From the NCBI RefSeq assembly GCF_022450045.1, contig NZ_JAKURD010000011.1: 64,000 nt of DNA; one strand, given 5' to 3'. This DNA comes from Gracilimonas sp. GTDB taxonomy: Bacteria > Bacteroidota > Rhodothermia > Balneolales > Balneolaceae. Positions 29,027 to 49,146 of this stretch are shown piece by piece. A program made the translations under genes and the position numbers. The notes under the pieces are model-generated. The model was given only the letters and a program-made list of their open reading frames with translations. It did not search any database and was not told the origin of the DNA. Every line of letters begins with the position of its first letter. The stretch's first letter is position 1.

Positions 29027-30118
29027 ATGATGAACGAGATAATTACAGATACTAACATTACGATAGAACCGGTTGAACAAAGCCGTATTCATGAGGTTGA
29101 TTTTAATAATCTTGTGTTTGGCCGTAAGTTCTCCGATCACATGTTTGAAATGGAGTTTCAGGATGATAAGTGGGGCAACCCGGTCATCAAACCCTATGCT
29201 CCTTTTAAAATGACCCCGGCCACCAATGTGCTGCATTACGGTCAGGCAGTCTTTGAAGGCATGAAGGCTTATTATGTGGATGAAAACACGGTGCATATCT
29301 TCAGACCTAAAGCACATCATGAGCGGTTCAATAATTCATGCCGCAGAATGTGCATTCCAGAAACAGAATATGAAATTTTTATTGAAGCGCTGGAGACGCT
29401 CATCAAATTAGATCATCAGTGGATTCCCAGGAGATCCGGTACGGCCTTGTATATTCGCCCTTTTATTTTTGCCTCTGATGATCTTCTTGCTGCTCGTGCA
29501 TCCGATACATTCACCTATCAGATCATTACTTCACCGGTTGGGGCTTATTATACCGAAGGATTCAATCCCGTTTCCCTTACCACCACAGATGAGTACGTTC
29601 GGGCAGTAAAAGGCGGAACCGGAGAAGCTAAAGCAGCCGGAAATTACGCCGGCAGTTTTCTCCCAGCAAAAAAGGCTAAAGCAGCCGGTTACACGCAGGT
29701 ACTTTGGTTAGATGCGAAAGAGCACAAGTATATTGAAGAAGTCGGGACCATGAATATCCATTTCCTGATCGGTGATACATTGGTAACTCCCGCTTTGACA
29801 GGTTCTATTCTCCCCGGAGTAACGCGTCGTTCGGTGATCGCACTTGCCAAAGAATGGGGACTGAATGTAGAAGAACGCCGAATTACTATTGACGAGGTTT
29901 TTGAAGCGCATGATAGTGGCGAGTTGAAGGAAATATTTGGTTCCGGAACAGCAGCGGTGGTTTCGCCGGTTGGGTTGATCCATCACAAAGGAAAGAAGAT
30001 TGAACTTGATCGTGAGAAACCGGGTGAATTTGCTCAAAAATGCTTCGACAAGATCACTGATATTCAATATGGCCGTGCAGAAGATAAATTTGGCTGGGTG
30101 CACAAGGTGAGCATCTGA
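29027..30118 (+). CDS. ilvE: Branched-chain amino acid aminotransferase
   Basis: LHYGQAVFEGMKAY, LYIRPF, GEAKAAGNY, EEVGTMN and ILPGVTR motifs. Confidence 0.93.
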   Translation: MMNEIITDTNITIEPVEQSRIHEVDFNNLVFGRKFSDHMFEMEFQDDKWGNPVIKPYAPFKMTPATNVLHYGQAVFEGMKAYYVDENTVHIFRPKAHHERFNNSCRRMCIPETEYEIFIEALETLIKLDHQWIPRRSGTALYIRPFIFASDDLLAARASDTFTYQIITSPVGAYYTEGFNPVSLTTTDEYVRAVKGGTGEAKAAGNYAGSFLPAKKAKAAGYTQVLWLDAKEHKYIEEVGTMNIHFLIGDTLVTPALTGSILPGVTRRSVIALAKEWGLNVEERRITIDEVFEAHDSGELKEIFGSGTAAVVSPVGLIHHKGKKIELDREKPGEFAQKCFDKITDIQYGRAEDKFGWVHKVSI

Positions 30119-37359: not shown

Positions 37360-37881
37360 CGAATGTTTCTAAAAGAATTTTAAAACTGCTGTAAGATTCA
37401 TCTGACGGAAGCCCCGTCTGATGGATGGGCTGATCGATGGCGCAGGCGCAGGATGTTGGATTGGGTTACGAACTGAACTTAGGTGCTCGAATTAAACAAA
37501 CGGTCAGATGGACTTAGAGCCATCAGACCGGGAGGTAGATTACACATTCCCGGACTCGATCTGATGGAAACCCCATCTGATCGATGATACAGGCGCAGGA
37601 TGTTGGATTAGGATACGAACAAGCTTAGGTTCCCCAAATCAAGCAAACGGTCAGACGGACTTGGAGCCGGCAGACCGTACCTCAAAGGCTTTAGTTCGGT
37701 ATAAGAACTACGTTAAAAGGATAAAAATGAATGCTTGTGATCATTTCCCGCGGAGACGGGAATCTAATGGCGGCCATAACTTCCGTGTTCGATACCTGAC
37801 CAACCATGGGGTTTCGGGCATTTGCTGCGAAATGACTATTCAACGTGTTCAACAAATTATTTTTATCTCAAACTCACGTTA
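37341..37881. mobile_element. Composite MITE cluster: left TIR + two family-B hairpin units + family-A body + right TIR
   Basis: TAATGTGAGTGCGAGATAA (37341-37359), tandem units 37399-37530 and 37558-37677, family-A body about 37691-37860, TTATCTCAAACTCACGTTA (37863-37881). Confidence 0.75.
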
Positions 37882-37909
37882 GTTAGAAATACTAAACCAT
37901 CGGTTTTAT

Positions 37910-39214
37910 TTACAATGCACTACTTGGACCTTTTAAATCTCTTTTTTTGAATGTTAGCTCAAATAACGTTTTATCACTTTGCTCAGTAATCGATATGTAT
38001 CCTCTGAGTTGAGAATTAAGTGTTTTGACTATGAGCATTCCCAAACTGCTTGGTTTTTCCAGATTATATTTTTGACTGCTTTTTACTCCATTATCGGAAA
38101 CCGTTAAAACTACACCTTCTTCTAATTCTTTAAGGTTTACTTCTATAATTGGTTCTTTAATATCTTCGTAGAAATTTAAATAAGCATTAAGCAATAATTC
38201 ATTGCATAATAATCCGGCCGGTACCGCCTGATTGATGTTAAGGTTTACGGCGGGGATCTCTTTTTTTATTTTGACTGTACGTTTTCCATTCTCTTTATTG
38301 AATGTGTTTTGTACAAAATCTACTAACTGATTCAGGTAGTCTCCAAAGTCTATATGAGAAGTTTTTTCGGCATTTGCATATGAATCATGCACCAACGCAA
38401 GACACTTTAATCTCATCTGGCTATCGTGAAGAATAGCATGAACCTTTTCATTTTCTGTGTACATGGACTGCAGATCAAACAACGCAGATACCAATGCCAG
38501 GTTATTACGAACCCGGTGATGTATTTCAGAAAGCAGGCTTTCTTTTGCTTTTACCGACTGCTGCAATTTTTCTTCAGCTTTTTTCTGCTCAGTGATATTC
38601 TCCAGCATAACCACCAGGTATACCGGGCTCTCCGGTCCATTAAATACCGCAGACTTAGAAACCAAACCGGGAAAATAGGTTCCGTCTTTTTTACGATATC
38701 TTTTTTCTATTTTGTAAAATACTCTTTTTTGTTCTGCCAGTTCCTGATCTAATTCTCTTCCGATAGTTAAATCATCGGGATGAATAAAATCTTCAAAATT
38801 AAGTTTGAGCAGCTCTTCTTCTTTATATCCGAGCATATCGCACAGGGTTTGGTTCACCTGTATCCAGTTTTCATTAGGTTTGTGATGAGCGATGCCAACT
38901 GGCGCAGATTTAAACGTAGCCTTGAATTCATCTCTGCTTTTTGTGAGCCGATCAATGGTTTCATTTAGTACGGCATTATTTTTCCAAACCAGCAAATATA
39001 TCATCACCCCGCTTGCCAGTACAAAAAACCAACCTTTAAGGGATTGAACCCGTGTTAAAGTCTCAGGTTCATTAAAGGAAGCAAGTACAAATTGATCAGA
39101 AAACTGAACCCATAAAATTCCAACCAAAAGGTAAACGAGGGTAATGACCAGCGGACTATTATTCAGAATAGCTTTTATACGATCCATACAAAATTCCATT
39201 TTTTTGCGGAGCAA
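37910..39214 (-). CDS. Membrane sensor histidine kinase (PAS + HisKA_2)
   Basis: Two TM helices, PAS domain (FIHPDD), H-box SEIHHRVRNNL. Probable ATG at 39187. Confidence 0.88.
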   Translation of the reverse strand: MLRKKMEFCMDRIKAILNNSPLVITLVYLLVGILWVQFSDQFVLASFNEPETLTRVQSLKGWFFVLASGVMIYLLVWKNNAVLNETIDRLTKSRDEFKATFKSAPVGIAHHKPNENWIQVNQTLCDMLGYKEEELLKLNFEDFIHPDDLTIGRELDQELAEQKRVFYKIEKRYRKKDGTYFPGLVSKSAVFNGPESPVYLVVMLENITEQKKAEEKLQQSVKAKESLLSEIHHRVRNNLALVSALFDLQSMYTENEKVHAILHDSQMRLKCLALVHDSYANAEKTSHIDFGDYLNQLVDFVQNTFNKENGKRTVKIKKEIPAVNLNINQAVPAGLLCNELLLNAYLNFYEDIKEPIIEVNLKELEEGVVLTVSDNGVKSSQKYNLEKPSSLGMLIVKTLNSQLRGYISITEQSDKTLFELTFKKRDLKGPSSAL

Positions 39215-39442
39215 TTAGCCAAAAATGACGTATTTGATTTAATAAACCGTACCCGCCTTGTTAAAATGAATAACAGTGGAAAGATTCTGTATGAATAAGA
39301 TACCCAAACGTGTAATCTAAAAAACATGTGTTGCCTTCTGATAAAACCTCATAAGTATATTATTTTAAAGAGTAAGCTGCAGGTAAAATGTTACACTTTT
39401 ATTTTCGGAGTGTTTTTTGGGCTAATGCTCACATACTGCTTC

Positions 39443-39544
39443 GTTGTGGTTTGATTTTTAGATGGGATCAAGGATATTGACAAAATGAATCACTTCATAG
39501 CCTCAACAGTTGTGGTTTGATTTTTAGATGGGATCAAGGATATT
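39443..39544 (+). CRISPR. Type II-C mini-array: two identical 36-bp repeats and one 30-bp spacer
   Basis: GTTGTGGTTTGATTTTTAGATGGGATCAAGGATATT at 39443-39478 and 39509-39544. Spacer GACAAAATGAATCACTTCATAGCCTCAACA. Orientation inferred from tracrRNA pairing. Confidence 0.9.
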
Positions 39545-39737
39545 AGTTGGTTTTTTAATCTTCTGGTATTCAATCACTTAGCAAAAAATATCCTTTAAAA
39601 AAATGTGGGTTAGGCTTCTTCAATGAGGCTTCAACCGGCATTTTTTTTACTCTCAAATTTGGGCTATGCTGAATTAAATTCAGCATGACTTTAATTTCCG
39701 GGGTAATTTTGGATATACTTTCGGGCTTATAAAACCT

Positions 39738-40076
39738 TCAGAACATTTCAAGCTGAGGGGGCGGTTTTTCTACCGGCAGGCTTTTCTTTCCCCAAATATT
39801 TATGATCTTTCCATATTGCTTATCGGTCACAGAGAGAATACTTACCTGTCCTTTGGATGGAACCAGTTTTTTTATGCGTTTGATATGAACTTTCGCACTT
39901 TCGCGGCTGGCACAGTGGCGGGTATATACGGAATACTGCATCATGGAAAAACCATCCTGCAACAAATCTTTTCTAAAACGGGTAGCTTTTCGGCGTTCGA
40001 TTTTGGCAGTAACCGGGAGGTCAAAGAATACAAAGATCCACATAATCTGGTAAGCATTTAAGCGTGAATAACTCAT
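39738..40076 (-). CDS. cas2: CRISPR-associated endonuclease Cas2 (type II)
   Basis: MWIFVFFDLPV...FRKDLLQDGFSMMQYSVY...TDKQY. Confidence 0.95.
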   Translation of the reverse strand: MSYSRLNAYQIMWIFVFFDLPVTAKIERRKATRFRKDLLQDGFSMMQYSVYTRHCASRESAKVHIKRIKKLVPSKGQVSILSVTDKQYGKIINIWGKKSLPVEKPPPQLEMF

Positions 40077-40960
40077 AATACCGGATATTTTATTCGCTTG
40101 GCTTCTCCTTTATAACATCGGGCAAGTGAAGCTGTGGTTTCAGACAAGCCAACCATCAGCGGCCGTTGTTTCCGGTTGATCTTAATGTCGCAGGCCAGGC
40201 ACTGCAAAAGTTTCATTTTTAGCTCAGGCGATAATTCTTCCTCTGCTTGTCCTTCATTCATTAATTCCCAAACCAGTTGATCTACATACGGACGGTACGG
40301 TTCCATTATATCGTCCGCCAGGCAGTACGCATTGTATTTATTATGGTGATGGATTCCCAGTGTGGGCAACAGCCCGGAACCGGTAAGGGCACGTGCTACG
40401 GCAGCCCGCAGAACGGTATAACCGTAATTCAGCATATTGTTGGGTACGTTCCCGTACCTTGTACGGTTAAATTCATCCCCAAACAAGCGTGGCCAGTAAA
40501 ACCGGGCGGCACGTGCTTCCATATTTTCCGGATCTCCACTTTTAACCTGCCGGGCCATATATCGTAAAGGCTCACCGTCTTGTTCGGCTGTATCCAGCAT
40601 GGCTGCCTGGTTTCGGATTTTTGCTTTTACTGTTTGTTTCCAAAGTTGTTTTTTGAGTGGAACGGAAGATTCTACTTGCGCACGGAAGTGTTCGGTTTGA
40701 GTTTGATGATTGTCAAGGTGAAATAGCATGGAAGCTGGCAAGTGTTTTTCATTACAGAAAATAACAGCGGCATTATATTTGGCCAGCAAGCGGATGACTG
40801 CCTGGGTAAACGTGATTTGATGATGCTCAAACACCACAAATCCAATGTCTTCCACCGGTCGCTCGTTTTCCTCACCCGTTTGTTTATTTAAAATCACCAA
40901 CTGGCTGTTGTGGATTTTAAGGTGACAGGGACTATTAAAAAAGAGTGTTTTTTTAAGCAT
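40073..40960 (-). CDS. cas1: Type II CRISPR-associated endonuclease Cas1
   Basis: WKQTVKAKIRNQ, EARAARFYW, NNMLNYGYTVLR and GIHHHNKYNAYCLADDIMEPYRP motifs. Confidence 0.96.
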   Translation of the reverse strand: MLKKTLFFNSPCHLKIHNSQLVILNKQTGEENERPVEDIGFVVFEHHQITFTQAVIRLLAKYNAAVIFCNEKHLPASMLFHLDNHQTQTEHFRAQVESSVPLKKQLWKQTVKAKIRNQAAMLDTAEQDGEPLRYMARQVKSGDPENMEARAARFYWPRLFGDEFNRTRYGNVPNNMLNYGYTVLRAAVARALTGSGLLPTLGIHHHNKYNAYCLADDIMEPYRPYVDQLVWELMNEGQAEEELSPELKMKLLQCLACDIKINRKQRPLMVGLSETTASLARCYKGEAKRIKYPVL

Positions 40961-40971
40961 AACAGGTGGGT

Positions 40972-41448
40972 TTATTTCCTGTTTCGGTACTTCCTGATTT
41001 TTTGAAGTTCTTCAACATCGGCTTTGTCTTTCATCCGGCCGGTAAGCATTTTATTTTTGATTAGGTCTTCCAATTGAATAAACCTGACCTCAAGCCCGTC
41101 TTGAAACTGGTAGGGAATGCTGTTTTCAAAAGCTTCTTCAAAATGGAGTCCGGTTATGGCATTGAAAATATCTATTTGCAGCGGTTCGTCTCCAAGTTTA
41201 ACTGAAAAAGGAGAAGTGAAGTCAATTTCTTGCAGGTATTCAACAAGTTCGGTACTCAGTGTTAGTTCTTTTACAGCCCCGACCAGTTGGTCTTTATTAT
41301 TTGAATCGGGTTTTACCCAGATATCCATATCGCCGGTAGTGCGTACGTACCCATGAAAAATAACCGCATACCCGCCCGCGATAAGATAACTTACCCCGTG
41401 AGAATTAAACTCCTTTAACACCTCTGCAAAATTATTAGCCAGGATCAT
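40972..41448 (-). CDS. Pol-beta superfamily nucleotidyltransferase (DUF6036-like)
   Basis: LIAGGYAVIFHGYVRTTGDMDIWV (GG-x-A...R-x-T-x-D-x-D) and C-terminal K...GRMKDKAD. Confidence 0.8.
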   Translation of the reverse strand: MILANNFAEVLKEFNSHGVSYLIAGGYAVIFHGYVRTTGDMDIWVKPDSNNKDQLVGAVKELTLSTELVEYLQEIDFTSPFSVKLGDEPLQIDIFNAITGLHFEEAFENSIPYQFQDGLEVRFIQLEDLIKNKMLTGRMKDKADVEELQKIRKYRNRK

Positions 41449-41710
41449 AGGGGTGGGGTTTCATGATTTGGAAAGACTTGGAAATGGGAGGCCAGGTGCC
41501 ATCTTTTTTCAAATACTGATGAAATACCTGCTTACGCAGCTTCTCTACGTGTTTCAACCGCTCATGGTAAGACAGGCCTGCACTTTGTTTTGCTTCAAAC
41601 TCGGCGGCTTCCTCAAAAGAACTGAACACACGTACGGTTTTAAAGGCTGTGGAGGGTTCCTCAACTTTGCCTTTATCGCTTTTTGATGGTTTTTCTTTTT
41701 TGTTATTCAT
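41435..41710 (-). CDS. Small hypothetical protein coupled to the nucleotidyltransferase
   Basis: 91 aa, starts 5 nt after the cas9 stop and overlaps the NTase start. Low-complexity N-terminus and helical core (LSYHERLKHVEKLR). Confidence 0.65.
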   Translation of the reverse strand: MNNKKEKPSKSDKGKVEEPSTAFKTVRVFSSFEEAAEFEAKQSAGLSYHERLKHVEKLRKQVFHQYLKKDGTWPPISKSFQIMKPHPYDPG

Positions 41711-41715
41711 TGAAA

Positions 41716-44700
41716 TTAACTCACTAATGTTAGTTTCCCTGTGGCAGAAATTTCTACTTTTCTGGGATTAAATCGTCTCCATCCTGTTTTACCATTTCCA
41801 AAACTTTGGATTCTATGAAAATAAGGTTCAATTTTATTATCACGAGTAGATTCTGAAATAAGTCTGAATTCATAATATTTTGATGATAAAGTTTGAACTC
41901 TAAACAAATGTTGACTTAAAACCATATAATCATCTTCAAATTCTTTTATTTGTTCATCGGTTAATCCAAGTAAAAATAAGTCGTTTATTTGCATGGAGGT
42001 AATGATCTTATTTCCATTTGCAGGAAGTTGAATAATTGATTGATCTTGAGCTTTTCGTTCAACGGCCTCCCAAAAGGTTATCACCTGTTCTGCTATATTG
42101 CCTTCTTTATTTTCATAAATAAGGACGTGATGGTTGTTTTTGGGATTTACAAATTGATTTATCCCATCCTTCAACTGTTCTGCATTTCCAATATTTTCCT
42201 TGATACGAACCTTCTTTACGGGTATTGGGTCGCCATTTTTGTTAGGCAGATGAACTAACGGCTTTCGCTTTTTAGTTTCTTCATCAATTTCAAAAAAGGC
42301 ATTTTTAGGAACAGAATACTTTTTATTCAAATCTATTGAAGAATTAGCTCTTTTTACTGCGGCTCGAACTAATTCTCTAATTTTAGGATCTACAATTTTA
42401 TCCACTTTTGCACTGTTGTTGATAGTATCGAGTGGTTTTCTAACATGAAAGTATTCTTCTCCATTTTTATCTTCATGTTTACCATACACGGTATCCTGAT
42501 GCAGTTGTCCTCTTGCAGCCATACCTTCTGCAAAAAGCCTTTTGCCATTTTTTGTTTTCGGTTTACCGTTGTAGTCAAAAAGTTGTTTTTTAACTTTGGT
42601 AAGTACCCGGTCTGTTTTTTTGTGAGAAACTAAAATCCGGTTAACAGCAAGGTTTGCATCCTGCCAGAAATTATCCCAGGGCAAATCAACAGACTTTTCT
42701 TTTTTGATTTTCCAATTATCCCATCCTTTTGCAGAAAGTGTTGATATTTGCTGCAGGTATTTTCTTTCAGAACAAGCCACTGTTAAAGCATCAATGGCAT
42801 GGTGGCGATGATCGTCTCTTTCTTTAAAGGGATAAAGGGTACCATCTTTTACATTGCCTTGAATAAATTGCCCTTTTTTCTCCAGTGTTTTTTGGTCTTT
42901 CTTTAGCGTTTCTTTATTCCAGGGTAAAAGTCCTGCTACATTATCTTCTGCATCAATCGCCGCTAAATATTCGCCGTCTTCAACATCTCCAACTTCATAG
43001 AAATCATTAAGGATTCCGTCTAATCCCCAAAAATGCCTCAACATGGAAGTTACCGTACCTTGTGCAACAGTAACTTTAGGGCAGGCGTGTTTCAAGTACG
43101 TTTTGGCAATTTTAGAGATGTACCGGGTATCATTTAACTGCCTTTCGATAAAACCTTCTGCATCGGGTTTCTTTTTACTAATAAAGCGGCGGTATTTCGG
43201 ATTGTTCTTTTTGAAAAGACGGTAAGCTCTTTGCTTCATTTTATCCCATTCGGAAGTGCCTCCAAATGCCTGATAGGGTGTAAGGTTTCCTTTCTCCTGA
43301 TTTTTATAAGCAAGGCAAAGCGTCTTGTTTTGCAGGCCATTATCTAAAGAAACACTATATGGTATGATGTGTTCTACTTGCACATATCCCTCATCAAATA
43401 ATTCAGTGAGGCCTATTTTTTCGCCGGTGAAAGGACAAATACCTTCACATTCTTCCCAAAGCAAAACTTTCTGAATGTTTGAACGGGTATGCTTGATGCC
43501 ATATTCATCCAATCGGGCTTTAATTCGAATATTTTCAGCTTCTCTTTCCTGTTGGCGGTCACGAATTCTGTCGCGATGTTTTTTTGAGGATTTAAGTTCT
43601 CTTGCTAATTCTATTCTTATTTCATCCGGTGCTCCATATTCTTCAATAATAGAATTAACAACGGTACGAAGCTCGAACAGGGTTTGCTGAACAATTGGGT
43701 TTCGAATAGTATCCGGTGAAGGCAACTTACCTTCCAGTTCAACCTCTTTTTCCAAACTATGGTGGTACAGCTTATCCGCTTTGTTTTTTGGGAGGGCAAA
43801 TTTTTCAACAAGCAGTTCTTTGATTTTATCTACAATCTTTCCTTCTGTGTGGTTTGAGATAATATTGAGCACGTCCTTTTCAATATCTGTTTTTTTCTCC
43901 TGCCCCATTTCATCCCAGGCTTTTGAACCAAAAGCAGCCCGAAGGCCTCCCAGTAAAACAGCTTTATCGTAAATAAAACCTTTCTTTAAATAGGGAAGAA
44001 TATTCAGAATGGCTTTACGGCTCAGATTGGCATAGCCGTCTTTCAAAGTAAAAGACTTAAATTTTTCAATCTCATCAGGATATAATTCCCACTTTTCTTC
44101 TGCATATCTATCCAGCCAATCAGGATCATCAGCCGTTAATTTTATATGCCAGATATCTTCCTGTTCCTTCAGACTTAATTCATGCCATCGTTCTTTTCCG
44201 AATATTTTTTGAAAGCTTGCGATTGTTCTGTTGCCAGGCAGTTTATCTTTGTCTTTATAGTTATAGTTGCCATCGGGGCGGGAAAGTTTTGTTCTAAGTG
44301 TTTTAAATGGAAATGCTTTGTCTTTAGAATTAAAAACTTCCAGAGCTATTTTTCGATCCTCTTCATTGAGTGGTTGTTCCCCATCAAGAATGCTGTTGAT
44401 AGTTTGATAGGTTCTAAATAATTCGAATGGAATAGCTGAAAGCTGACATCTTGGCTTATTTGTTTCAAAAGAACAATTACCAATTAGGTGTTTTTGAGAA
44501 CGTAAGGGGCGCTGATAAAATAATATTCCATCTTTTGTATCACCTCTGCGTTTACTTCCACCAATTTTTATTCTAAGATCTTCCGTAAAGATTTCAGGAT
44601 AAAATTCTTTTTGGTGTTCCCAGATTATTTCAAACTCTTCCTCGTACATGGATCGAAGAGTGTATCTGTTTCTTAAACGTTTTTTATGGGAGTCTTCATG

Positions 44701-45318
44701 GTGCAGGTAATTTCCAAGTGTCCCATATTCCTCTATTTTTTCCTTGGTTTCATTAATACCTGTTTTTCCTTCCTTTGGTTTTCCCTCATACAAAGCACCA
44801 GAATCTTCATCCTGATTTTGCAGCGTTTCTTTATATCCTCTTCTCTGCGCAAAGTGATAAAAAATTCTTCCGATTTCATGAAAGGATAGCTTTTCCCCTT
44901 TGTATGCTTTTGACCTGGCTTTATAGGGATCAATAGTAAAAAAAGATCTGAGCGCGATAGGCAGTTCCTTTTCTCTAATAACTGTTTGAAATTTCCCTCT
45001 GAATTTTTCTTCAGAAACGTTATTTCCGGTCAGTTTTTTATAGACACTATCTATGTCCGGGAACATTCCATGTTTAATGAGAAGATGGGTAAGCTTTTCT
45101 TTCCTCAATTTCGTTCGAAAGTTTTGCCTTCGAATTTGGCGTTTTTCACGACGGGTAGCGTTTTTGGATTCCTCTTTAGTTCCTTTTTCAAGATTAATTC
45201 CCATTGGAAAAATTCTTGATCCTATTCCTGGAATCATTCCTCTTTCATTATCTAATTCTATAACCGACCAGCCAATAGAGTTTGTACCCAAATCCAATCC
45301 CAATATTCTTTTACTCAT
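41716..45318 (-). CDS. cas9: Type II-C CRISPR-associated endonuclease Cas9 (1200 aa)
   Basis: RuvC-I LGLDLGTNSIG, Arg-rich bridge helix, RuvC-II IELARE, HNH VEHIIPYS...NKTL...NQEKGN, RuvC-III DHRHHAIDA. No csn2 or cas4 in the locus. Confidence 0.97.
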   Translation of the reverse strand: MSKRILGLDLGTNSIGWSVIELDNERGMIPGIGSRIFPMGINLEKGTKEESKNATRREKRQIRRQNFRTKLRKEKLTHLLIKHGMFPDIDSVYKKLTGNNVSEEKFRGKFQTVIREKELPIALRSFFTIDPYKARSKAYKGEKLSFHEIGRIFYHFAQRRGYKETLQNQDEDSGALYEGKPKEGKTGINETKEKIEEYGTLGNYLHHEDSHKKRLRNRYTLRSMYEEEFEIIWEHQKEFYPEIFTEDLRIKIGGSKRRGDTKDGILFYQRPLRSQKHLIGNCSFETNKPRCQLSAIPFELFRTYQTINSILDGEQPLNEEDRKIALEVFNSKDKAFPFKTLRTKLSRPDGNYNYKDKDKLPGNRTIASFQKIFGKERWHELSLKEQEDIWHIKLTADDPDWLDRYAEEKWELYPDEIEKFKSFTLKDGYANLSRKAILNILPYLKKGFIYDKAVLLGGLRAAFGSKAWDEMGQEKKTDIEKDVLNIISNHTEGKIVDKIKELLVEKFALPKNKADKLYHHSLEKEVELEGKLPSPDTIRNPIVQQTLFELRTVVNSIIEEYGAPDEIRIELARELKSSKKHRDRIRDRQQEREAENIRIKARLDEYGIKHTRSNIQKVLLWEECEGICPFTGEKIGLTELFDEGYVQVEHIIPYSVSLDNGLQNKTLCLAYKNQEKGNLTPYQAFGGTSEWDKMKQRAYRLFKKNNPKYRRFISKKKPDAEGFIERQLNDTRYISKIAKTYLKHACPKVTVAQGTVTSMLRHFWGLDGILNDFYEVGDVEDGEYLAAIDAEDNVAGLLPWNKETLKKDQKTLEKKGQFIQGNVKDGTLYPFKERDDHRHHAIDALTVACSERKYLQQISTLSAKGWDNWKIKKEKSVDLPWDNFWQDANLAVNRILVSHKKTDRVLTKVKKQLFDYNGKPKTKNGKRLFAEGMAARGQLHQDTVYGKHEDKNGEEYFHVRKPLDTINNSAKVDKIVDPKIRELVRAAVKRANSSIDLNKKYSVPKNAFFEIDEETKKRKPLVHLPNKNGDPIPVKKVRIKENIGNAEQLKDGINQFVNPKNNHHVLIYENKEGNIAEQVITFWEAVERKAQDQSIIQLPANGNKIITSMQINDLFLLGLTDEQIKEFEDDYMVLSQHLFRVQTLSSKYYEFRLISESTRDNKIEPYFHRIQSFGNGKTGWRRFNPRKVEISATGKLTLVS

Positions 45319-45351
45319 GACAATCTGATTTTAGTTGATAGTCTATGTTAT

Positions 45352-45383
45352 TTTGTGATATCAAAAAAAAATGGTTACAATTG
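45352..45383 (+). promoter_or_regulatory. Probable tracrRNA promoter (-33 TTTG, -7 TACAATTG)
   Basis: TTTG at 45352-45355, 20-nt spacer, then TACAATTG (one mismatch to TAnnTTTG) just upstream of the anti-repeat. Confidence 0.45.
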
Positions 45384-45389
45384 TCTCAT

Positions 45390-45478
45390 AAGAAACCATC
45401 TAAATTTCTTATCACAATAAGGCTATATGCCGAAGGCTTTTGCCTATGAGTCCCGCGTACTCCGTGGGACTTTTTTTT
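45390..45478 (+). ncRNA. tracrRNA
   Basis: Anti-repeat CCATCTAAA...ATCACAAT (45396-45418) pairs with repeat TTTAGATGG and GTTGTGGT. Followed by nexus AAGGCTATATGCCG and terminator hairpin GTCCCGCG...CGTGGGAC-T8. Confidence 0.88.
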
Positions 45479-45565
45479 GTCCAATAACTTCTAATTAAAC
45501 TCTTTAGTTATTGAAAATCAAACTGATGTAGATAGATTAAGGAATTAAACTTTTCATATACAAGA

Positions 45566-46030
45566 ATGGAAACACAAAAGTGCATAGAGAAACTTTACAC
45601 TGCTCTCCAGGATCTGGATGCAGAAACAATGATTAGTTGCTACCACCCTGAGGCAACATTTGAAGATCCGGTATTCGAGCTGAGTTCAAAAAAAGAAATA
45701 GCAGGAATGTGGACCATGCTCTGCAAAAGAGCGAAGGAATTTGAATTCCATTTTGATCAGGTTTGGGCCGATGAGGAAAAAGGAAAAGCCCGGCTGAAAG
45801 CGAAGTACTTATTTTCTAAGACAAACCGGATGGTCTATAACAACATTAACGCCCGGTTCAAATTCAAAGACGGCCTGATCATTGAACACATTGACTCCTT
45901 TAATTTCTGGAGATGGAGCCGGCAGGCATTGGGTTTTCCGGGGATTTTATTGGGATGGACTTCATTTTTTCAAAAGAAAGTACAGCGGAAGGCATACAAA
46001 AATATGAAGGTTTATATCCCTAGCGACTAA
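45566..46030 (+). CDS. NTF2/SnoaL-like family protein
   Basis: YHPEATFEDPVF...FKFKDGLIIEHIDSFNFWRW. Confidence 0.85.
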   Translation: METQKCIEKLYTALQDLDAETMISCYHPEATFEDPVFELSSKKEIAGMWTMLCKRAKEFEFHFDQVWADEEKGKARLKAKYLFSKTNRMVYNNINARFKFKDGLIIEHIDSFNFWRWSRQALGFPGILLGWTSFFQKKVQRKAYKNMKVYIPSD

Positions 46031-46098
46031 GCAGGAACATTGAATGTTTTAGAGGTTATAATTGTATCTATTATCAAACGCAGAACAAACAGACGATT

Positions 46099-46773
46099 AT
46101 GCCATATACACTTCAGATCTTAGATATCGACAACGTAACTCATGATGTAAGACAAGTTACCCTTGAAAAGCCGGAAGGCTATGAATTTGAACCCGGCCAG
46201 GCCACTGAGGTAGCGATTGACAAAGAAGGATGGAGAGAAGAAAAACGCCCATTTACATTTACTTCTTTGAATGAAGAAGAACATCTCGAATTCACGATCA
46301 AGATCTATCCGGAACATGGTGGTGTGACCGAACAGATCGGTAAACTGAAAAAAGGAGACAAGCTGATCATTGATGAACCCTGGGGAACGATACAGTATAA
46401 AGGGGAAGGGGTATTTTTAGCCGGAGGTGCCGGAGTTACCCCCTTCATTGCTATCCTCAGAGACCTTCACAAAAAAGGTGAGATCGGTAATAACAAGCTC
46501 ATATTTTCTAATAAAACGGAAAAAGACATCATCCTGAAGAATGAATTTGAGGATATGCTGGGTGATAACTTCATCAACGCCATTACGGATGAAGATCCGG
46601 AAGGCGATCATATTTTCCTGGATGGTTTTGTAGATAAGGAATTTCTGCAATCTCAGATCGACGACTTTGATCAGCCGTTTTATGTATGCGGCCCCGGCCC
46701 CTTCAATGAATCCATGATGAAGTATCTGAAAGAACTGGGAGCCGATCCTGATGCTTTGGTCTTTGAAGAGTAG
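46099..46773 (+). CDS. FNR-like FAD/NAD(P)-binding oxidoreductase (flavodoxin reductase-like)
   Basis: RPFTFTS, FLAGGAGVTPF, FYVCGP and C-terminal FEE. Confidence 0.88.
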   Translation: MPYTLQILDIDNVTHDVRQVTLEKPEGYEFEPGQATEVAIDKEGWREEKRPFTFTSLNEEEHLEFTIKIYPEHGGVTEQIGKLKKGDKLIIDEPWGTIQYKGEGVFLAGGAGVTPFIAILRDLHKKGEIGNNKLIFSNKTEKDIILKNEFEDMLGDNFINAITDEDPEGDHIFLDGFVDKEFLQSQIDDFDQPFYVCGPGPFNESMMKYLKELGADPDALVFEE

Positions 46774-47419: not shown

Positions 47420-48343
47420 ATGACACACGGCACACACAACGCGGTTCATGATCCGCGGAACGAGAATGTTCTCATTTACATCAATGGAGAATTATTTCCC
47501 AGGGCTGAAGCTAAGATATCCGTATTTGACAGCGGGTATTTAGTTGGTGATGGGGTTTGGGAAGGATTCCGCCTTCATAAAGGTGTGCTTGTATTCCTTA
47601 AAGAACATTATGACCGGTTATATCAGGGAGCTAAAACCATAGGCATGGATCTGAATATAACCCGTCAAGAGATCACAGAGGCTATTTGGGAAACACTGGA
47701 AGCCAATAAGATGAAGGACGGTGTCCATGTTCGCCTGATGTTTACCCGAGGCATAAAAAAGACCCCTTCTCAAGACCCAAGATTGACGATATCCGGTCCG
47801 AATTTGGTGATCATTGCCGAGTATAAACAGGCCGATCCTAAGAGCAGAGACCGTGGGGTGACACTATTTACCAGCACCATTCGCCGCGGTTCACCTGATT
47901 ATCTTGATCCCCGTTTGAACTGCCACAGTAAGATTCATGAAGTGCAGGCATTGGTTCAAGCTATCGAAGCCGGTGCGGATGAAGCATTGATGCTGGATGT
48001 GAACGGTTTTGTGTCAACTTGCAATGCAACCAACTTTTTTATGGTTAAAGGGGATGAAGTATGGACTTCCACCGGGCAGTATTGTATGAATGGCATTACC
48101 CGTGGCAAGGTGATCGAGATCTGTGAGAAATCGGGCTTCACATGCCGGCAAAAGAATTTTTCACTGTTTGATGTATATGGAGCTGATGAGGCATTTGTAA
48201 CCGGAAGTTTTGGAGGGCTGACTCCCGTGACTACGATTGATGGGAGAACCATTTCAGGATCTGTATCCGGTGCCATGACTCAAAAGCTACAACAGTTGTA
48301 TGAAAAAGAAATTGAACATGCTGTACAGAAAAAAAAGGTATAG
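47420..48343 (+). CDS. Class IV PLP-dependent aminotransferase-like protein (atypical active site)
   Basis: KISVFDSGYLVGDGVWEG, AGADEALMLD, GITRGKV and ADEAFVTGS motifs. Confidence 0.85.
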   Translation: MTHGTHNAVHDPRNENVLIYINGELFPRAEAKISVFDSGYLVGDGVWEGFRLHKGVLVFLKEHYDRLYQGAKTIGMDLNITRQEITEAIWETLEANKMKDGVHVRLMFTRGIKKTPSQDPRLTISGPNLVIIAEYKQADPKSRDRGVTLFTSTIRRGSPDYLDPRLNCHSKIHEVQALVQAIEAGADEALMLDVNGFVSTCNATNFFMVKGDEVWTSTGQYCMNGITRGKVIEICEKSGFTCRQKNFSLFDVYGADEAFVTGSFGGLTPVTTIDGRTISGSVSGAMTQKLQQLYEKEIEHAVQKKKV

Positions 48344-48417
48344 CAGCACATAGAATATAAATTTTACACTGGGTGAAAGAGAAGCTCAGTTTTAAAATAA
48401 AAGCAGAGGCTAAATAC

Positions 48418-49146
48418 ATGTTAAAAACCAAAAGAATTTGTTTGTGGAGTGGTCCGCGAAATATTTCAACGGCGCTGATGTACTCATTTGCGCAGCGCGA
48501 AGACACGACGGTAGTTGATGAACCGCTATATGCCCATTACCTGTCCAATACTGATGCCAGGAATTATCATCCCGGCGCGAAGGAAGTGTTGGAAAGTCAG
48601 GAGAATGACGGGCAGAAAGTAGTGGATGAGATCATACTCGGAGATTATGATACACCCATTGCGTTCTTCAAGAACATGACACACCATCTGGTGAATCTGG
48701 ATCTCAGCTTTATGGAGAAAACGGTGAATGTGATCCTGACAAGACCGCCCAAAGACATGCTGCCTTCTTATGCCAAACAGGTTAAGAATCCCACTATGCG
48801 GGATGTAGGCTATGCCAAGCACCTTGAGATCGTAAAGTATCTGAAGTCGATAGATAAAAAGCCGGTGATCGTGGATTCGAAAGATATCCTGCAATATCCG
48901 CAATCACGTTTAAGAGAATTATGCGGAACACTTGGCATTCCCTTTGATGAAGCTATGCTGAAATGGCCGGCAGGTCCCCGAAAAGAAGACGGAGTGTGGG
49001 CCAAGTATTGGTACCATAACGTACATCGGTCCACCGGATTCAGAGCGTATAAAGCTAAAACTGAGCCTTTTCCTGAAGAGTTGGAAGACCTGCTGGAAGA
49101 ATGCCAGGAAGCGTACGAGGAGCTGTTGACGTATGCCGGGGATTGA
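48418..49146 (+). CDS. Sulfotransferase-like (P-loop) domain protein
   Basis: ICLWSGPRNISTALMYSF, EEDG-like KEDGVWAKYWY and VHRSTGF motifs. Probable ATG at 48418. Confidence 0.75.
   Translation: MLKTKRICLWSGPRNISTALMYSFAQREDTTVVDEPLYAHYLSNTDARNYHPGAKEVLESQENDGQKVVDEIILGDYDTPIAFFKNMTHHLVNLDLSFMEKTVNVILTRPPKDMLPSYAKQVKNPTMRDVGYAKHLEIVKYLKSIDKKPVIVDSKDILQYPQSRLRELCGTLGIPFDEAMLKWPAGPRKEDGVWAKYWYHNVHRSTGFRAYKAKTEPFPEELEDLLEECQEAYEELLTYAGD

Follow-up and report, generated by a model that had tools for sequence, protein, structure and literature searches.

Positions 47420–49146 of the window (the whole stretch of 64,000 nucleotides of Gracilimonas sp. DNA that was analysed) contain two genes that are best considered together. 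The first encodes a fold-type IV 'aminotransferase-like' protein of 307 residues without the lysine of its class (ATL, 47420–48343; PF01063, E = 9e-42 in a profile search). The second encodes a Sulfotransfer_5 protein of 242 residues, counted from its ATG (ST, 48418–49146; PF19798, E = 6.5e-45). These genes and all features described within them lie on the plus strand. The evidence presented below supports the view that they are one functional unit, an instance of a widespread module consisting of a Lys-less class IV protein and a Sulfotransfer_5 protein. We favour, with moderate confidence, a function as a PAPS-dependent sulfation unit, in which the pocket of ATL would accommodate a small anionic metabolite, or act on it, without covalent PLP catalysis. 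The two genes are separated by a spacer of 74 bp (48344–48417) that lacks a terminator-like site. The reading frame of ST is open from GTG 48373; the likely start is ATG 48418 rather than this codon, because the predicted model shows residues 1–16 of the longer ORF as disordered and most homologues do not extend over them.

Residue equivalences in ATL were obtained from HMMER alignments to the solved branched-chain aminotransferases 5MQZ and 5CM0, which contain no gaps between the anchors RR (before) and A..EA..G.DEA (after). In the segment N167-C-H-S-K171 (47918–47932), Asn167 occupies the position of the Schiff-base lysine and Lys171 that of the canonical tyrosine. In the segment T200-C-N-A-T-N205 (48017–48034), Thr200 occupies the position of the glutamate that binds the cofactor pyridine N1, and the loop is remodelled. 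Both the lysine and the glutamate are absent from ATL, as a preliminary description made from the sequence had proposed by manual alignment; it had also located these two motifs, and the WSGPRNIST motif of ST discussed below, correctly. The same position as Asn167 was targeted by the depositors of 9J32, who made an N174K substitution in a Variovorax homologue. Asn167 is retained in 76 of 79 aligned rows, Cys168 in 72, His169 in 75 and Ser170 in 76; Thr200, or serine in its place, is also found in 76 of the 79. Given this retention, neither Asn167 nor Thr200/Ser can be ascribed to chance or to sequencing error. The three rows without Asn167 look like canonical paralogues that adjoin the gene in Anaerolineae. 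ATL cannot be an aminotransferase, since no internal aldimine is possible and the glutamate that protonates the cofactor nitrogen has been lost. Whether ATL depends on PLP at all is doubtful.

ATL belongs to a known, functionally uncharacterised family of Lys-less proteins typified by 7Z79, an 'aminotransferase-like protein' of Variovorax paradoxus released in 2022. The two are homologous over their full length (E = 6e-102 over residues 9–300), and 7Z79 can be superimposed onto the predicted model of ATL (pLDDT 88) with a TM-score of 0.93 and an r.m.s. deviation of 1.4 Å, at a sequence identity of 51–52%. Like ATL, 7Z79 has an asparagine at the lysine position and an S/T-C-N-x-T-N loop; unlike ATL, it has an arginine in place of Lys171 and a serine in place of Thr200. 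9J32, released in 2025, is the N174K mutant of the same protein. A literature search found no paper on 7Z79 or 9J32 and no function for 7Z79, so that this structure informs on the fold and not on the function. In our tree, ATL falls into a clade with Asn/Thr and Asn/Ser representatives (97% support), and a branch with 97% support separates the Lys-less rows from all 32 Lys/Glu representatives.

Canonical fold-type IV branched-chain aminotransferases such as 5MQZ, 5CM0 and 5E25 share with ATL the fold (TM-score 0.86–0.87, 38% identity), the phosphate-binding arginine and threonine loops, and the arginines of the YxR/TRG region. ATL differs from them in the replacement of lysine by asparagine, of glutamate by threonine and of the O3' tyrosine by lysine or arginine; in addition, the equivalent of Tyr95 is His103, a phenylalanine is replaced by Trp47, and there is a one-residue insertion with Lys113. 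What is retained may be read as a phosphate cup, comprising the putative phosphate-binding Arg51 (47570–47572; 79/79 in the family), which we take to have the role of its counterpart in E. coli BCAT and DAAT, together with the putative cup residues Ile226-Thr227 (48095–48100; each 79/79) and Thr261-Gly262-Ser263 (48200–48208; Gly262 79/79). Met223, presumably the hydrophobic residue that stacks on the cofactor ring, is also retained in the family. Its neighbour Cys222 (48083–48085; 74/79) is a derived feature of both Lys-less clades: it is conserved in the Asn/Thr and His/Glu groups but not in the Lys/Glu group, and His103 (47726–47728) shows the same pattern. Asn202 and Thr204 are derived in the His/Glu sister clade as well. 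The old cofactor pocket thus appears, from conservation patterns, to contain a new and near-invariant polar set (Asn167, Cys168, His169, Ser170, Lys/Arg171, Thr200, Cys201, Asn202, Thr204 and Asn205), which His103, Trp47 and Cys222 would complete. Conservation at the former active-site positions reaches at least 90%, compared with a mean column identity of 63%, which argues against a decaying pseudoenzyme.

That ST is a sulfotransferase-like protein with a P-loop-like motif, as suggested previously, is borne out by the PF19798 match and by its predicted model (pLDDT 92). The model matches TPST-1 with a VIA Z of 14.4 and the olefin synthase sulfotransferase with a Z of 14.3, over 213–219 residues, and the first 18 rows of this search are all sulfotransferases. 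Foldseek matched the model to the CurM sulfotransferase with E = 1e-6. A PDB search with the ST sequence alone gave no significant match (best E = 0.075), and the ESM Atlas returned nothing beyond generic sulfotransferase clusters; the relatives of ST among sulfotransferases were reached only by profile and fold searches.

The motif W25-S-G-P-R-N-I-S-T33 (48445–48471) is a putative 5'-phosphosulfate-binding loop. Trp25, Gly27, Pro28, Arg29, Asn30, Ser32 and Thr33 are invariant among 52 partners, and Trp25, Pro28, Arg29, Ser32 and Thr33 are kept also in the sulfotransferase domains of fusions of the His/Glu type. The segment D49-E-P-L-Y53 (48517–48531), at least 90% conserved in both partner types, contains a candidate catalytic base, Glu50. 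Its distance from Arg29, 21 residues, is the same as that between Arg78 and Glu99 of human TPST2, a glutamate to which Glu50 may be equivalent. R124-x7-S132 (48742–48768) is a putative 3'-phosphate-binding motif, which we assume to be that of PAPS sulfotransferases; a profile of the 52 partners aligns it to RHPYSVIES of the CurM sulfotransferase 4GBM with E = 2e-4. Partners from both Lys-less clades retain the loop, Glu50, Lys100, Arg124 and Ser132; conservation of His104 and His105 is confined to those of the Asn/Thr type. ST has the fold, the P-loop-like PRxxST loop and the R-x7-S motif in common with TPST and the CurM/olefin synthase sulfotransferases, but is only 10–15% identical to these enzymes, has no carrier-protein or peptide-substrate context, and is partnered with a PLP-fold protein. 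Taken together, the motifs and the model make it most likely that ST is catalytically competent and depends on PAPS, and that it belongs to the TPST/CurM-olefin-synthase structural type. ATP is an unlikely donor, as the motifs match those of PAPS-binding proteins.

The association of the two genes extends well beyond Gracilimonas. Of 80 related loci, 75 have ST directly downstream of ATL; they come from seven phyla or more, which include Bacteroidota (Balneolaceae and others), Chloroflexota, Gemmatimonadota, Acidobacteriota, Actinomycetota and Ignavibacteriota; for the unlinked loci, ST was found elsewhere in the genome in two of the five genomes checked. The median spacing, estimated from 72 loci, is about 6 bp; 47 of the 72 estimates are 30 bp or less or overlapping, with 25 overlapping pairs. 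Over the same loci, ATL is 59–93% identical and ST 42–97%. Natural fusions, which exist in both domain orders, further tie ATL to the sulfotransferase-like gene. Two odd arrangements were also seen, a GNAT-ST fusion and an ST-ATL protein of 539 residues. Clustering the ORFs of the 80 loci with 6 kb of flanking DNA revealed no third conserved gene. The upstream genes for a sodium:solute symporter, a SnoaL-like protein and an FNR-like protein are syntenic within the Balneolaceae only. The symporter was considered as a conserved partner and rejected, as the one next to the pair in an Acidobacteriota locus falls into a different subfamily, with an identity of just 26%. No plasmid-borne copies were found, the only matches being paralogues of 24–29% identity. 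Within one genus of Balneolaceae, the module is present in 7 of 18 genomes.

The eukaryotic 'branched-chain-amino-acid aminotransferase-like protein 1/2' is a fusion of PF19798 and PF01063 found in land plants, algae and a choanoflagellate. The plant BCAT-like fusions pointed out in the preliminary description do contain the identical two domains, but they are of a sister clade rather than of the Asn/Thr type. They share with the Gracilimonas pair the absence of the lysine, a conserved sulfotransferase core and a place on the Lys-less side of the tree. In contrast to ATL, their aminotransferase-like domain is of the His/Glu type (KIHHNN...ETNATN), and a histidine at the lysine position with retention of the glutamate characterises the plant and most fused proteins. 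The arrangement also differs: there are two ORFs with ATL first in Gracilimonas, and a single polypeptide with an N-terminal ST and a C-terminal ATL domain in eukaryotes. Some plant gene models of the fusion bear an extra FAM86/Methyltransf_16 domain. The literature search found no paper on the plant fusion proteins (At5g27410/At3g05190) and no published function for the ATL/ST pair; PF19798 was mentioned only in a table of a review.

As regards the supply of PAPS, APS kinase was found in the source Gracilimonas genome and in 37 of 39 ST-positive genomes, the two exceptions being Balneolaceae genomes. Within the Balneolaceae, the enzyme is present in 27 of 29 ST-positive and 21 of 32 ST-negative genomes, and it is present in all ten ST-positive genomes of other families or phyla. 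This co-occurrence lends weak support, since APS kinase is widespread in any case, occurring in 11 of 14 control genomes. Distant paralogues of ST adjoin cysC or cysDN within secondary-metabolite clusters.

The function that we favour may be pictured as follows. ST would sulfate a small anionic metabolite from PAPS, and the remodelled pocket of ATL would bind this metabolite either before or after its sulfation. ATL could present the metabolite to ST, or could process it without covalent PLP catalysis, for example by an elimination or rearrangement with sulfate as the leaving group. We infer a physical complex of ATL and ST, PAPS as the sulfuryl donor and a ligand in the ATL pocket, together with any chemistry that ATL may perform. 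Of the activation followed by PLP-dependent elimination or transamination that the preliminary description proposed, the first step is plausible as a sulfation, whereas the PLP dependence of the second is doubtful. The two Lys-less clades may not share one mechanism, given that they differ at both key positions (Asn/Thr versus His/Glu).

A more tentative proposal assigns catalysis to ATL, which would carry out a Lys-independent reaction undescribed for the class IV fold on a metabolite sulfated from PAPS by ST. Such a reaction could serve a cryptic activation by sulfation, or the making of a sulfated or sulfonated small molecule. One candidate would be an orphan route that uses PAPS to make a sulfonate, for instance cysteate; a route of this kind appears in the older taurine literature, and none was found in our literature search. 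If ATL is indeed catalytic in this way, the pair would be a two-enzyme pathway common to many marine and soil bacteria and, in fused form, to all land plants sampled.

It seems rather unlikely that ATL is still a vitamin-B6 enzyme, with non-covalently bound PLP or PMP, that acts on a keto or amino metabolite sulfated by ST; its reaction might then be an elimination of sulfate via a ketimine or aldimine. The retained phosphate cup and the putative ring-stacking Met223 would fit such an enzyme, as would the sister clade, which has a histidine exactly at the lysine position and keeps the glutamate. There is a precedent in the PMP-dependent sugar 3-dehydratases ColD and E1, fold-type I enzymes in which a histidine replaces the lysine. 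By analogy, these are natural B6-fold enzymes without a Schiff-base lysine whose histidine is mirrored in the His/Glu clade; however, their fold type is different, and ATL has neither that histidine nor an N1 carboxylate. A serine or threonine at the pyridine N1 is normal in the β-eliminating PLP enzymes of fold-type II, which would accommodate Thr200. Against a bound cofactor, the Asn/Thr type loses three contacts together (the lysine, the glutamate and the O3' tyrosine), the titles of 7Z79 and 9J32 name no cofactor, and the depositors evidently saw a need for the N174K substitution.

We give a similarly low probability to ATL being a non-catalytic pseudoenzyme, which would act as a scaffold or as a specificity or regulatory subunit and leave all of the chemistry to ST. 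The ancestral catalytic residues of ATL are indeed gone, and the protein is obligately paired or fused with an intact-looking enzyme; a role as pseudoenzyme partner has precedents in other PLP folds, according to PMC11726168. The old active site, however, has not relaxed, but has been re-fixed to a near-invariant polar set found across phyla, and conservation is higher in ATL than in ST; this pattern would be unusual for a mere scaffold.

The preliminary description had read Lys171, four residues after Asn167, as a displaced Schiff-base lysine, which would make ATL a PLP-dependent enzyme whose catalytic residue has moved. We consider this very improbable. Position 171 is a lysine in 77 of the 79 aligned close homologues and an arginine in the other two; it is, however, an arginine in the lineage of 7Z79 and in several further cluster representatives (at 50% identity), and a leucine in the His/Glu clade, including the plant fusions. 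Lys171 is therefore not a displaced catalytic lysine, as a Schiff-base lysine would be invariant. Moreover, the loss of the N1 glutamate accompanies that of the lysine. An alignment with the lysine of the SK pair at the canonical position, raised earlier as a way in which this reading might fail, was not obtained either: Lys171 falls on the O3'-binding tyrosine and Asn167 on the lysine. Finally, the notion that the alignment is misleading and ATL is an ordinary branched-chain or D-amino-acid aminotransferase can safely be set aside, because, although the top NCBIfam names for ATL are branched-chain aminotransferase models, its scores lie below the curated cut-off in all 19 models (best PRK08320, 250 versus 363 bits), the tree splits off the Lys/Glu representatives, and the genome already has a true, canonical ilvE at 29027–30118 (type II model, 452 bits versus a cut-off of 307). 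The earlier statement that ATL is not the housekeeping branched-chain aminotransferase is likewise supported.

The ATL/ST pair ranks among the more widespread of those conserved gene pairs for which we found no published function, with an ATL that is 59–93% identical across bacterial phyla, fused to its partner in land plants, algae and a choanoflagellate, and represented by a crystal structure since 2022. It raises the general question of what role a PLP fold can take on after losing its defining lysine, glutamate and tyrosine. The Gracilimonas copy has no feature beyond those of other copies, but adds another clean two-gene example from a genus that can be cultivated. Solving the module would provide a function for thousands of genes annotated as 'branched-chain amino acid aminotransferase' and correct that annotation, and it might bring to light a metabolite, sulfated or sulfonated, that plants and marine bacteria have in common.

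The lysine-less class IV aminotransferase-like gene ATL (47420-48343, + strand) encodes 307 residues and lies on the same strand as the ORF of its Sulfotransfer_5 partner, ST. Hits at 83-93% identity assign the source genome to Gracilimonas (Balneolaceae). ATL matches Pfam Aminotran_4 (E-value 9e-42) and 19 NCBIfam models for branched-chain aminotransferases, D-amino-acid aminotransferases and aminodeoxychorismate lyases, all with scores below the curated cut-offs (the top score is 250 bits, for a cut-off of 363). A genuine type II ilvE is present in the window at 29027-30118 (452 bits, cut-off 307). The top PDB match of ATL is 7Z79 (E-value 6e-102), entitled 'aminotransferase-like protein from Variovorax paradoxus' and released in 2022; 'mutant N174K' of the same protein (9J32, released in 2025) ranks second. 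The ATL model (pLDDT 88) can be superimposed onto 7Z79 with a TM-score of 0.93 and a r.m.s. deviation of 1.4 Å, at 51-52% sequence identity.

The HMMER alignment of ATL with 5MQZ and 5CM0, two solved archaeal branched-chain aminotransferases, is free of gaps from the RR preceding the active site to the A..EA..G.DEA helix following it. Asn167 is paired with the Schiff-base lysine, Lys171 with the conserved tyrosine four residues further on, and Thr200 with the glutamate of the V-S-E-G-x-x-x-N strand; the coordinates of all three were confirmed by translation. 7Z79 has the same Asn and a loop of the same type (S-C-N-S-T-N), and 9J32 has Lys at this position; the title of the mutant shows that its depositors likewise take the Asn as the lysine equivalent. 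The gap-free alignments to 5MQZ and 5CM0 confirm the preliminary description, according to which Asn occupies the lysine position and the glutamate is replaced. Judged by its sequence, ATL cannot form an internal aldimine and is not an aminotransferase.

When 1.84 billion cluster representatives were searched exhaustively, the Lys and Glu positions proved to have three states: canonical Lys/Glu, His/Glu (K-I-H-H-N-N ... E-T-N-A-T-N), and Asn/Thr or Asn/Ser; the ATL of the window is of the Asn/Thr type. In the maximum-likelihood tree calculated from 62 rows, all 32 Lys/Glu rows are separated from the lysine-less rows by a branch whose SH-aLRT support is 97%; the Asn/Thr-type clade is also supported at 97%. 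Both lysine-less groups differ from the Lys/Glu enzymes by the derived residues Trp47, His103 (in place of the Tyr of the Y-x-R motif), Glu134, Lys136, Asn202, Thr204 and Cys222, and by a one-residue insertion carrying Lys113.

We compared 80 genome loci with an ATL homologue (59-93% identity) from Balneolaceae, other Bacteroidota, Chloroflexota, Gemmatimonadota, Acidobacteriota, Actinomycetota and Ignavibacteriota. In 75 of them an ST homologue is the next gene downstream, on the same strand, with an estimated median spacing of ~6 bp; 25 of 72 pairs overlap and 47 lie within 30 bp. The spacer in the window is 74 bp long and contains no terminator-like site. In the five loci lacking an adjacent ST, the gene is located elsewhere in two genomes; the remaining three are draft metagenome assemblies in which it was not found. 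Fusions are known in both domain orders: ST-then-ATL proteins of 520-760 residues in land plants, algae, a choanoflagellate and uncultured organisms, mostly with a His/Glu-type ATL and some with Asn/Thr, and a few ATL-then-ST proteins of the Asn/Thr type. These data show that ATL and ST form a single unit of inheritance and translation, and sometimes a single polypeptide.

Clustering of all ORFs within 6 kb of the ATL loci yielded no third conserved gene. The upstream symporter, SnoaL-like and FNR-like genes reflect synteny within Balneolaceae only. The latter two (window 45566-46773, same strand as ATL), whose products are a SnoaL-like protein of 154 residues and a small ferredoxin-reductase-like protein of 224 residues with FAD/NAD binding, lie ahead of ATL in 15-17 loci, all from Balneolaceae. 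The symporter was rejected as a linked gene: at 26% identity, the one beside the pair in an Acidobacteriota locus is a member of another subfamily. The gene order in Gracilimonas halophila is PfkB kinase, Ham1, sodium:solute symporter, SnoaL-like, FNR-like, ATL and ST, with the symporter and SnoaL-like genes overlapping by 8 bp. Relative to this order, ~8.2 kb are inserted between these two genes in the window (37360-45565), comprising a PAS histidine kinase and a type II-C CRISPR-Cas9 locus.

The ST reading frame (+ strand) extends from a GTG at 48373 to 49146 and matches PF19798, Sulfotransfer_5 (E-value 6.5e-45), but no NCBIfam model. In the ST model (pLDDT 92) the long ORF is disordered over residues 1-16, which favours the ATG at 48418 as the start. 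The closest structural matches include tyrosylprotein sulfotransferase-1 (Z = 14.4) and an olefin synthase sulfotransferase domain (Z = 14.3); the top 18 rows are all sulfotransferases, followed by nucleotide kinases at Z = 7-9, and a Foldseek search was in accord with this fold. Among 52 ST partners the W-x-G-P-R-N-x-S-T loop, which we take to be the 5'-phosphosulfate loop, is invariant, and D-E-P, Lys100 and T-R-x-P are also shared. A profile of these partners aligns R124-x7-S132, presumably the 3'-phosphate motif, with R-H-P-Y-S-V-I-E-S of the CurM sulfotransferase (E-value 2e-4). The sulfotransferase domains attached to His/Glu-type ATLs retain W25, P28, R29, S32, T33, D49-E50-P51-L52-Y53, K100, R124 and S132, along with a C-terminal block of aromatic residues (W198, W209, W213-Y214). 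His104 and His105 are not conserved in these domains, making Glu50 the better candidate for the catalytic base. By all testable criteria of sequence and model, ST appears to be a real sulfotransferase, predicted to have what a PAPS-dependent enzyme needs.

An APS kinase domain is encoded in this genome within a 668-residue frame. In a sample of 61 Balneolaceae genomes, APS kinase is present in 27 of 29 with ST and 21 of 32 without; all ten ST-positive genomes of other families and phyla also have it. Because the genomes are interrelated and the kinase is common, this co-occurrence lends modest support to PAPS as the sulfate donor. ST paralogues (24-29% identity) are found beside cysC or cysDN on plasmids of the cyanobacterium Dolichospermum (CP070234.1), in a cluster with amidohydrolases, a 2OG oxygenase and a MATE exporter, and of Streptomyces (NZ_CP108363.1), in an NRPS cluster.

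On balance, we lean towards a model in which ATL and ST form a complex. ST would transfer sulfate from PAPS onto a small metabolite; the remodelled ATL pocket would hold the metabolite or its sulfated product, with an anionic group in the old phosphate cup, and ATL would either hand the metabolite to ST or process it. The preliminary description had envisaged activation followed by PLP-dependent elimination or transamination. Sulfation creates a leaving group in several structural neighbours of ST (the olefin synthase and CurM sulfotransferases, retinol dehydratase and LGS1), so that activation followed by elimination is chemically reasonable. We saw no support for ATP as the donor or for classical PLP catalysis.

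It is doubtful that ATL uses non-covalently bound PLP or PMP, by analogy with ColD and E1, the His-for-Lys dehydratases of fold type I. Both lysine-less groups do retain Arg51, Ile226-Thr227 and Thr261-Gly262-Ser/Thr263, which, from the alignment, we take to be the cofactor phosphate cup. That ATL is a non-catalytic subunit seems just as unlikely. Among 79 aligned rows, Asn167 is conserved in 76, Cys168 in 72, His169 in 75 and Ser170 in 76, and in the loop Thr/Ser200, Cys201 and Asn202 in 76 each, Thr204 in 79 and Asn205 in 78; the three rows lacking Asn167 resemble canonical paralogues adjoining the ATL gene in Anaerolineae. As mean column identity is only 63%, the old active site has been re-fixed rather than relaxed. 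A displaced catalytic lysine at position 171, as originally proposed, is very improbable: this position, presumably that of the tyrosine contacting cofactor O3' in E. coli BCAT, is occupied by Arg in several 50%-identity cluster representatives besides the Variovorax protein and by Leu in the His/Glu sister clade, and a Schiff-base lysine would be invariant. An ordinary aminotransferase can practically be dismissed.

Six rows of the Asn/Thr type group together with 99% support, although they come from Balneolaceae, other Bacteroidota, Chloroflexota, Gemmatimonadota and Ignavibacteriota. With end branches of 0.1-0.28 changes per column and 77-79% identity, they are far too similar for vertical descent. 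Occurrence is patchy: the module is carried by 45 of 301 genomes in Bacteroidota and by 35 of 49 in Balneolaceae, and in one genus 7 of 18 genomes have it. Together, these sequence comparisons point to an accessory module that has spread horizontally, with recent inter-phylum transfer. In two Balneolaceae genomes ST is broken, being split into two frames (G318:C4:375384-376069) or reduced to a 92-residue remnant (G171:C3:970153-970341), signs of module loss still under way.

Several related arrangements were seen. Four Anaerolineae-type loci (L020:5018-5929, L023:5009-5920, L025:5064-5918, L027:4966-5922) have a second class IV gene directly upstream of ATL, which retains a Lys (AKTADF) and the Glu (ILEGTGTNF) and is very divergent (end branch of 6 changes per column). 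A FAM86/Methyltransf_16 domain (EEF2 lysine methyltransferase-like) precedes the ST-ATL fusion in several plant gene models (P0308, P0315, P0318 and P0329 from Rosa, Magnolia, Fragaria and Nymphaea; also P0278), which could represent either read-through between adjacent genes or a genuine protein with three domains. Sulfotransfer_5 is fused to other domains in P0300, P0305, P0327 and P0336, with 38-50% identity to ST over most of its length, except for P0336 (69% over only 29% of ST). The fusion partners are a GNAT acetyltransferase (446 residues), guanylate-kinase repeats with a YHS domain (846 residues), a family 5 solute-binding protein (1053 residues) and a luciferase-like monooxygenase (540 residues, ST part truncated).

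With 7Z79 and 9J32 the ATL family is already represented in the PDB, and Pfam covers the partner domain; eukaryotic fusions carry the annotation 'branched-chain-amino-acid aminotransferase-like protein 1/2'. No functional study of the ATL family was found in the literature searched, and the locus is a further member of a known, functionally uncharacterised family. New here are the division of the family into three states, backed by a supported tree; a list of derived residues common to the two lysine-less clades, above all His103 and Cys222; a universal core of the sulfotransferases, pointing to Glu50; the cross-tabulation of APS kinase with ST; and the evidence of recent transfer between phyla.
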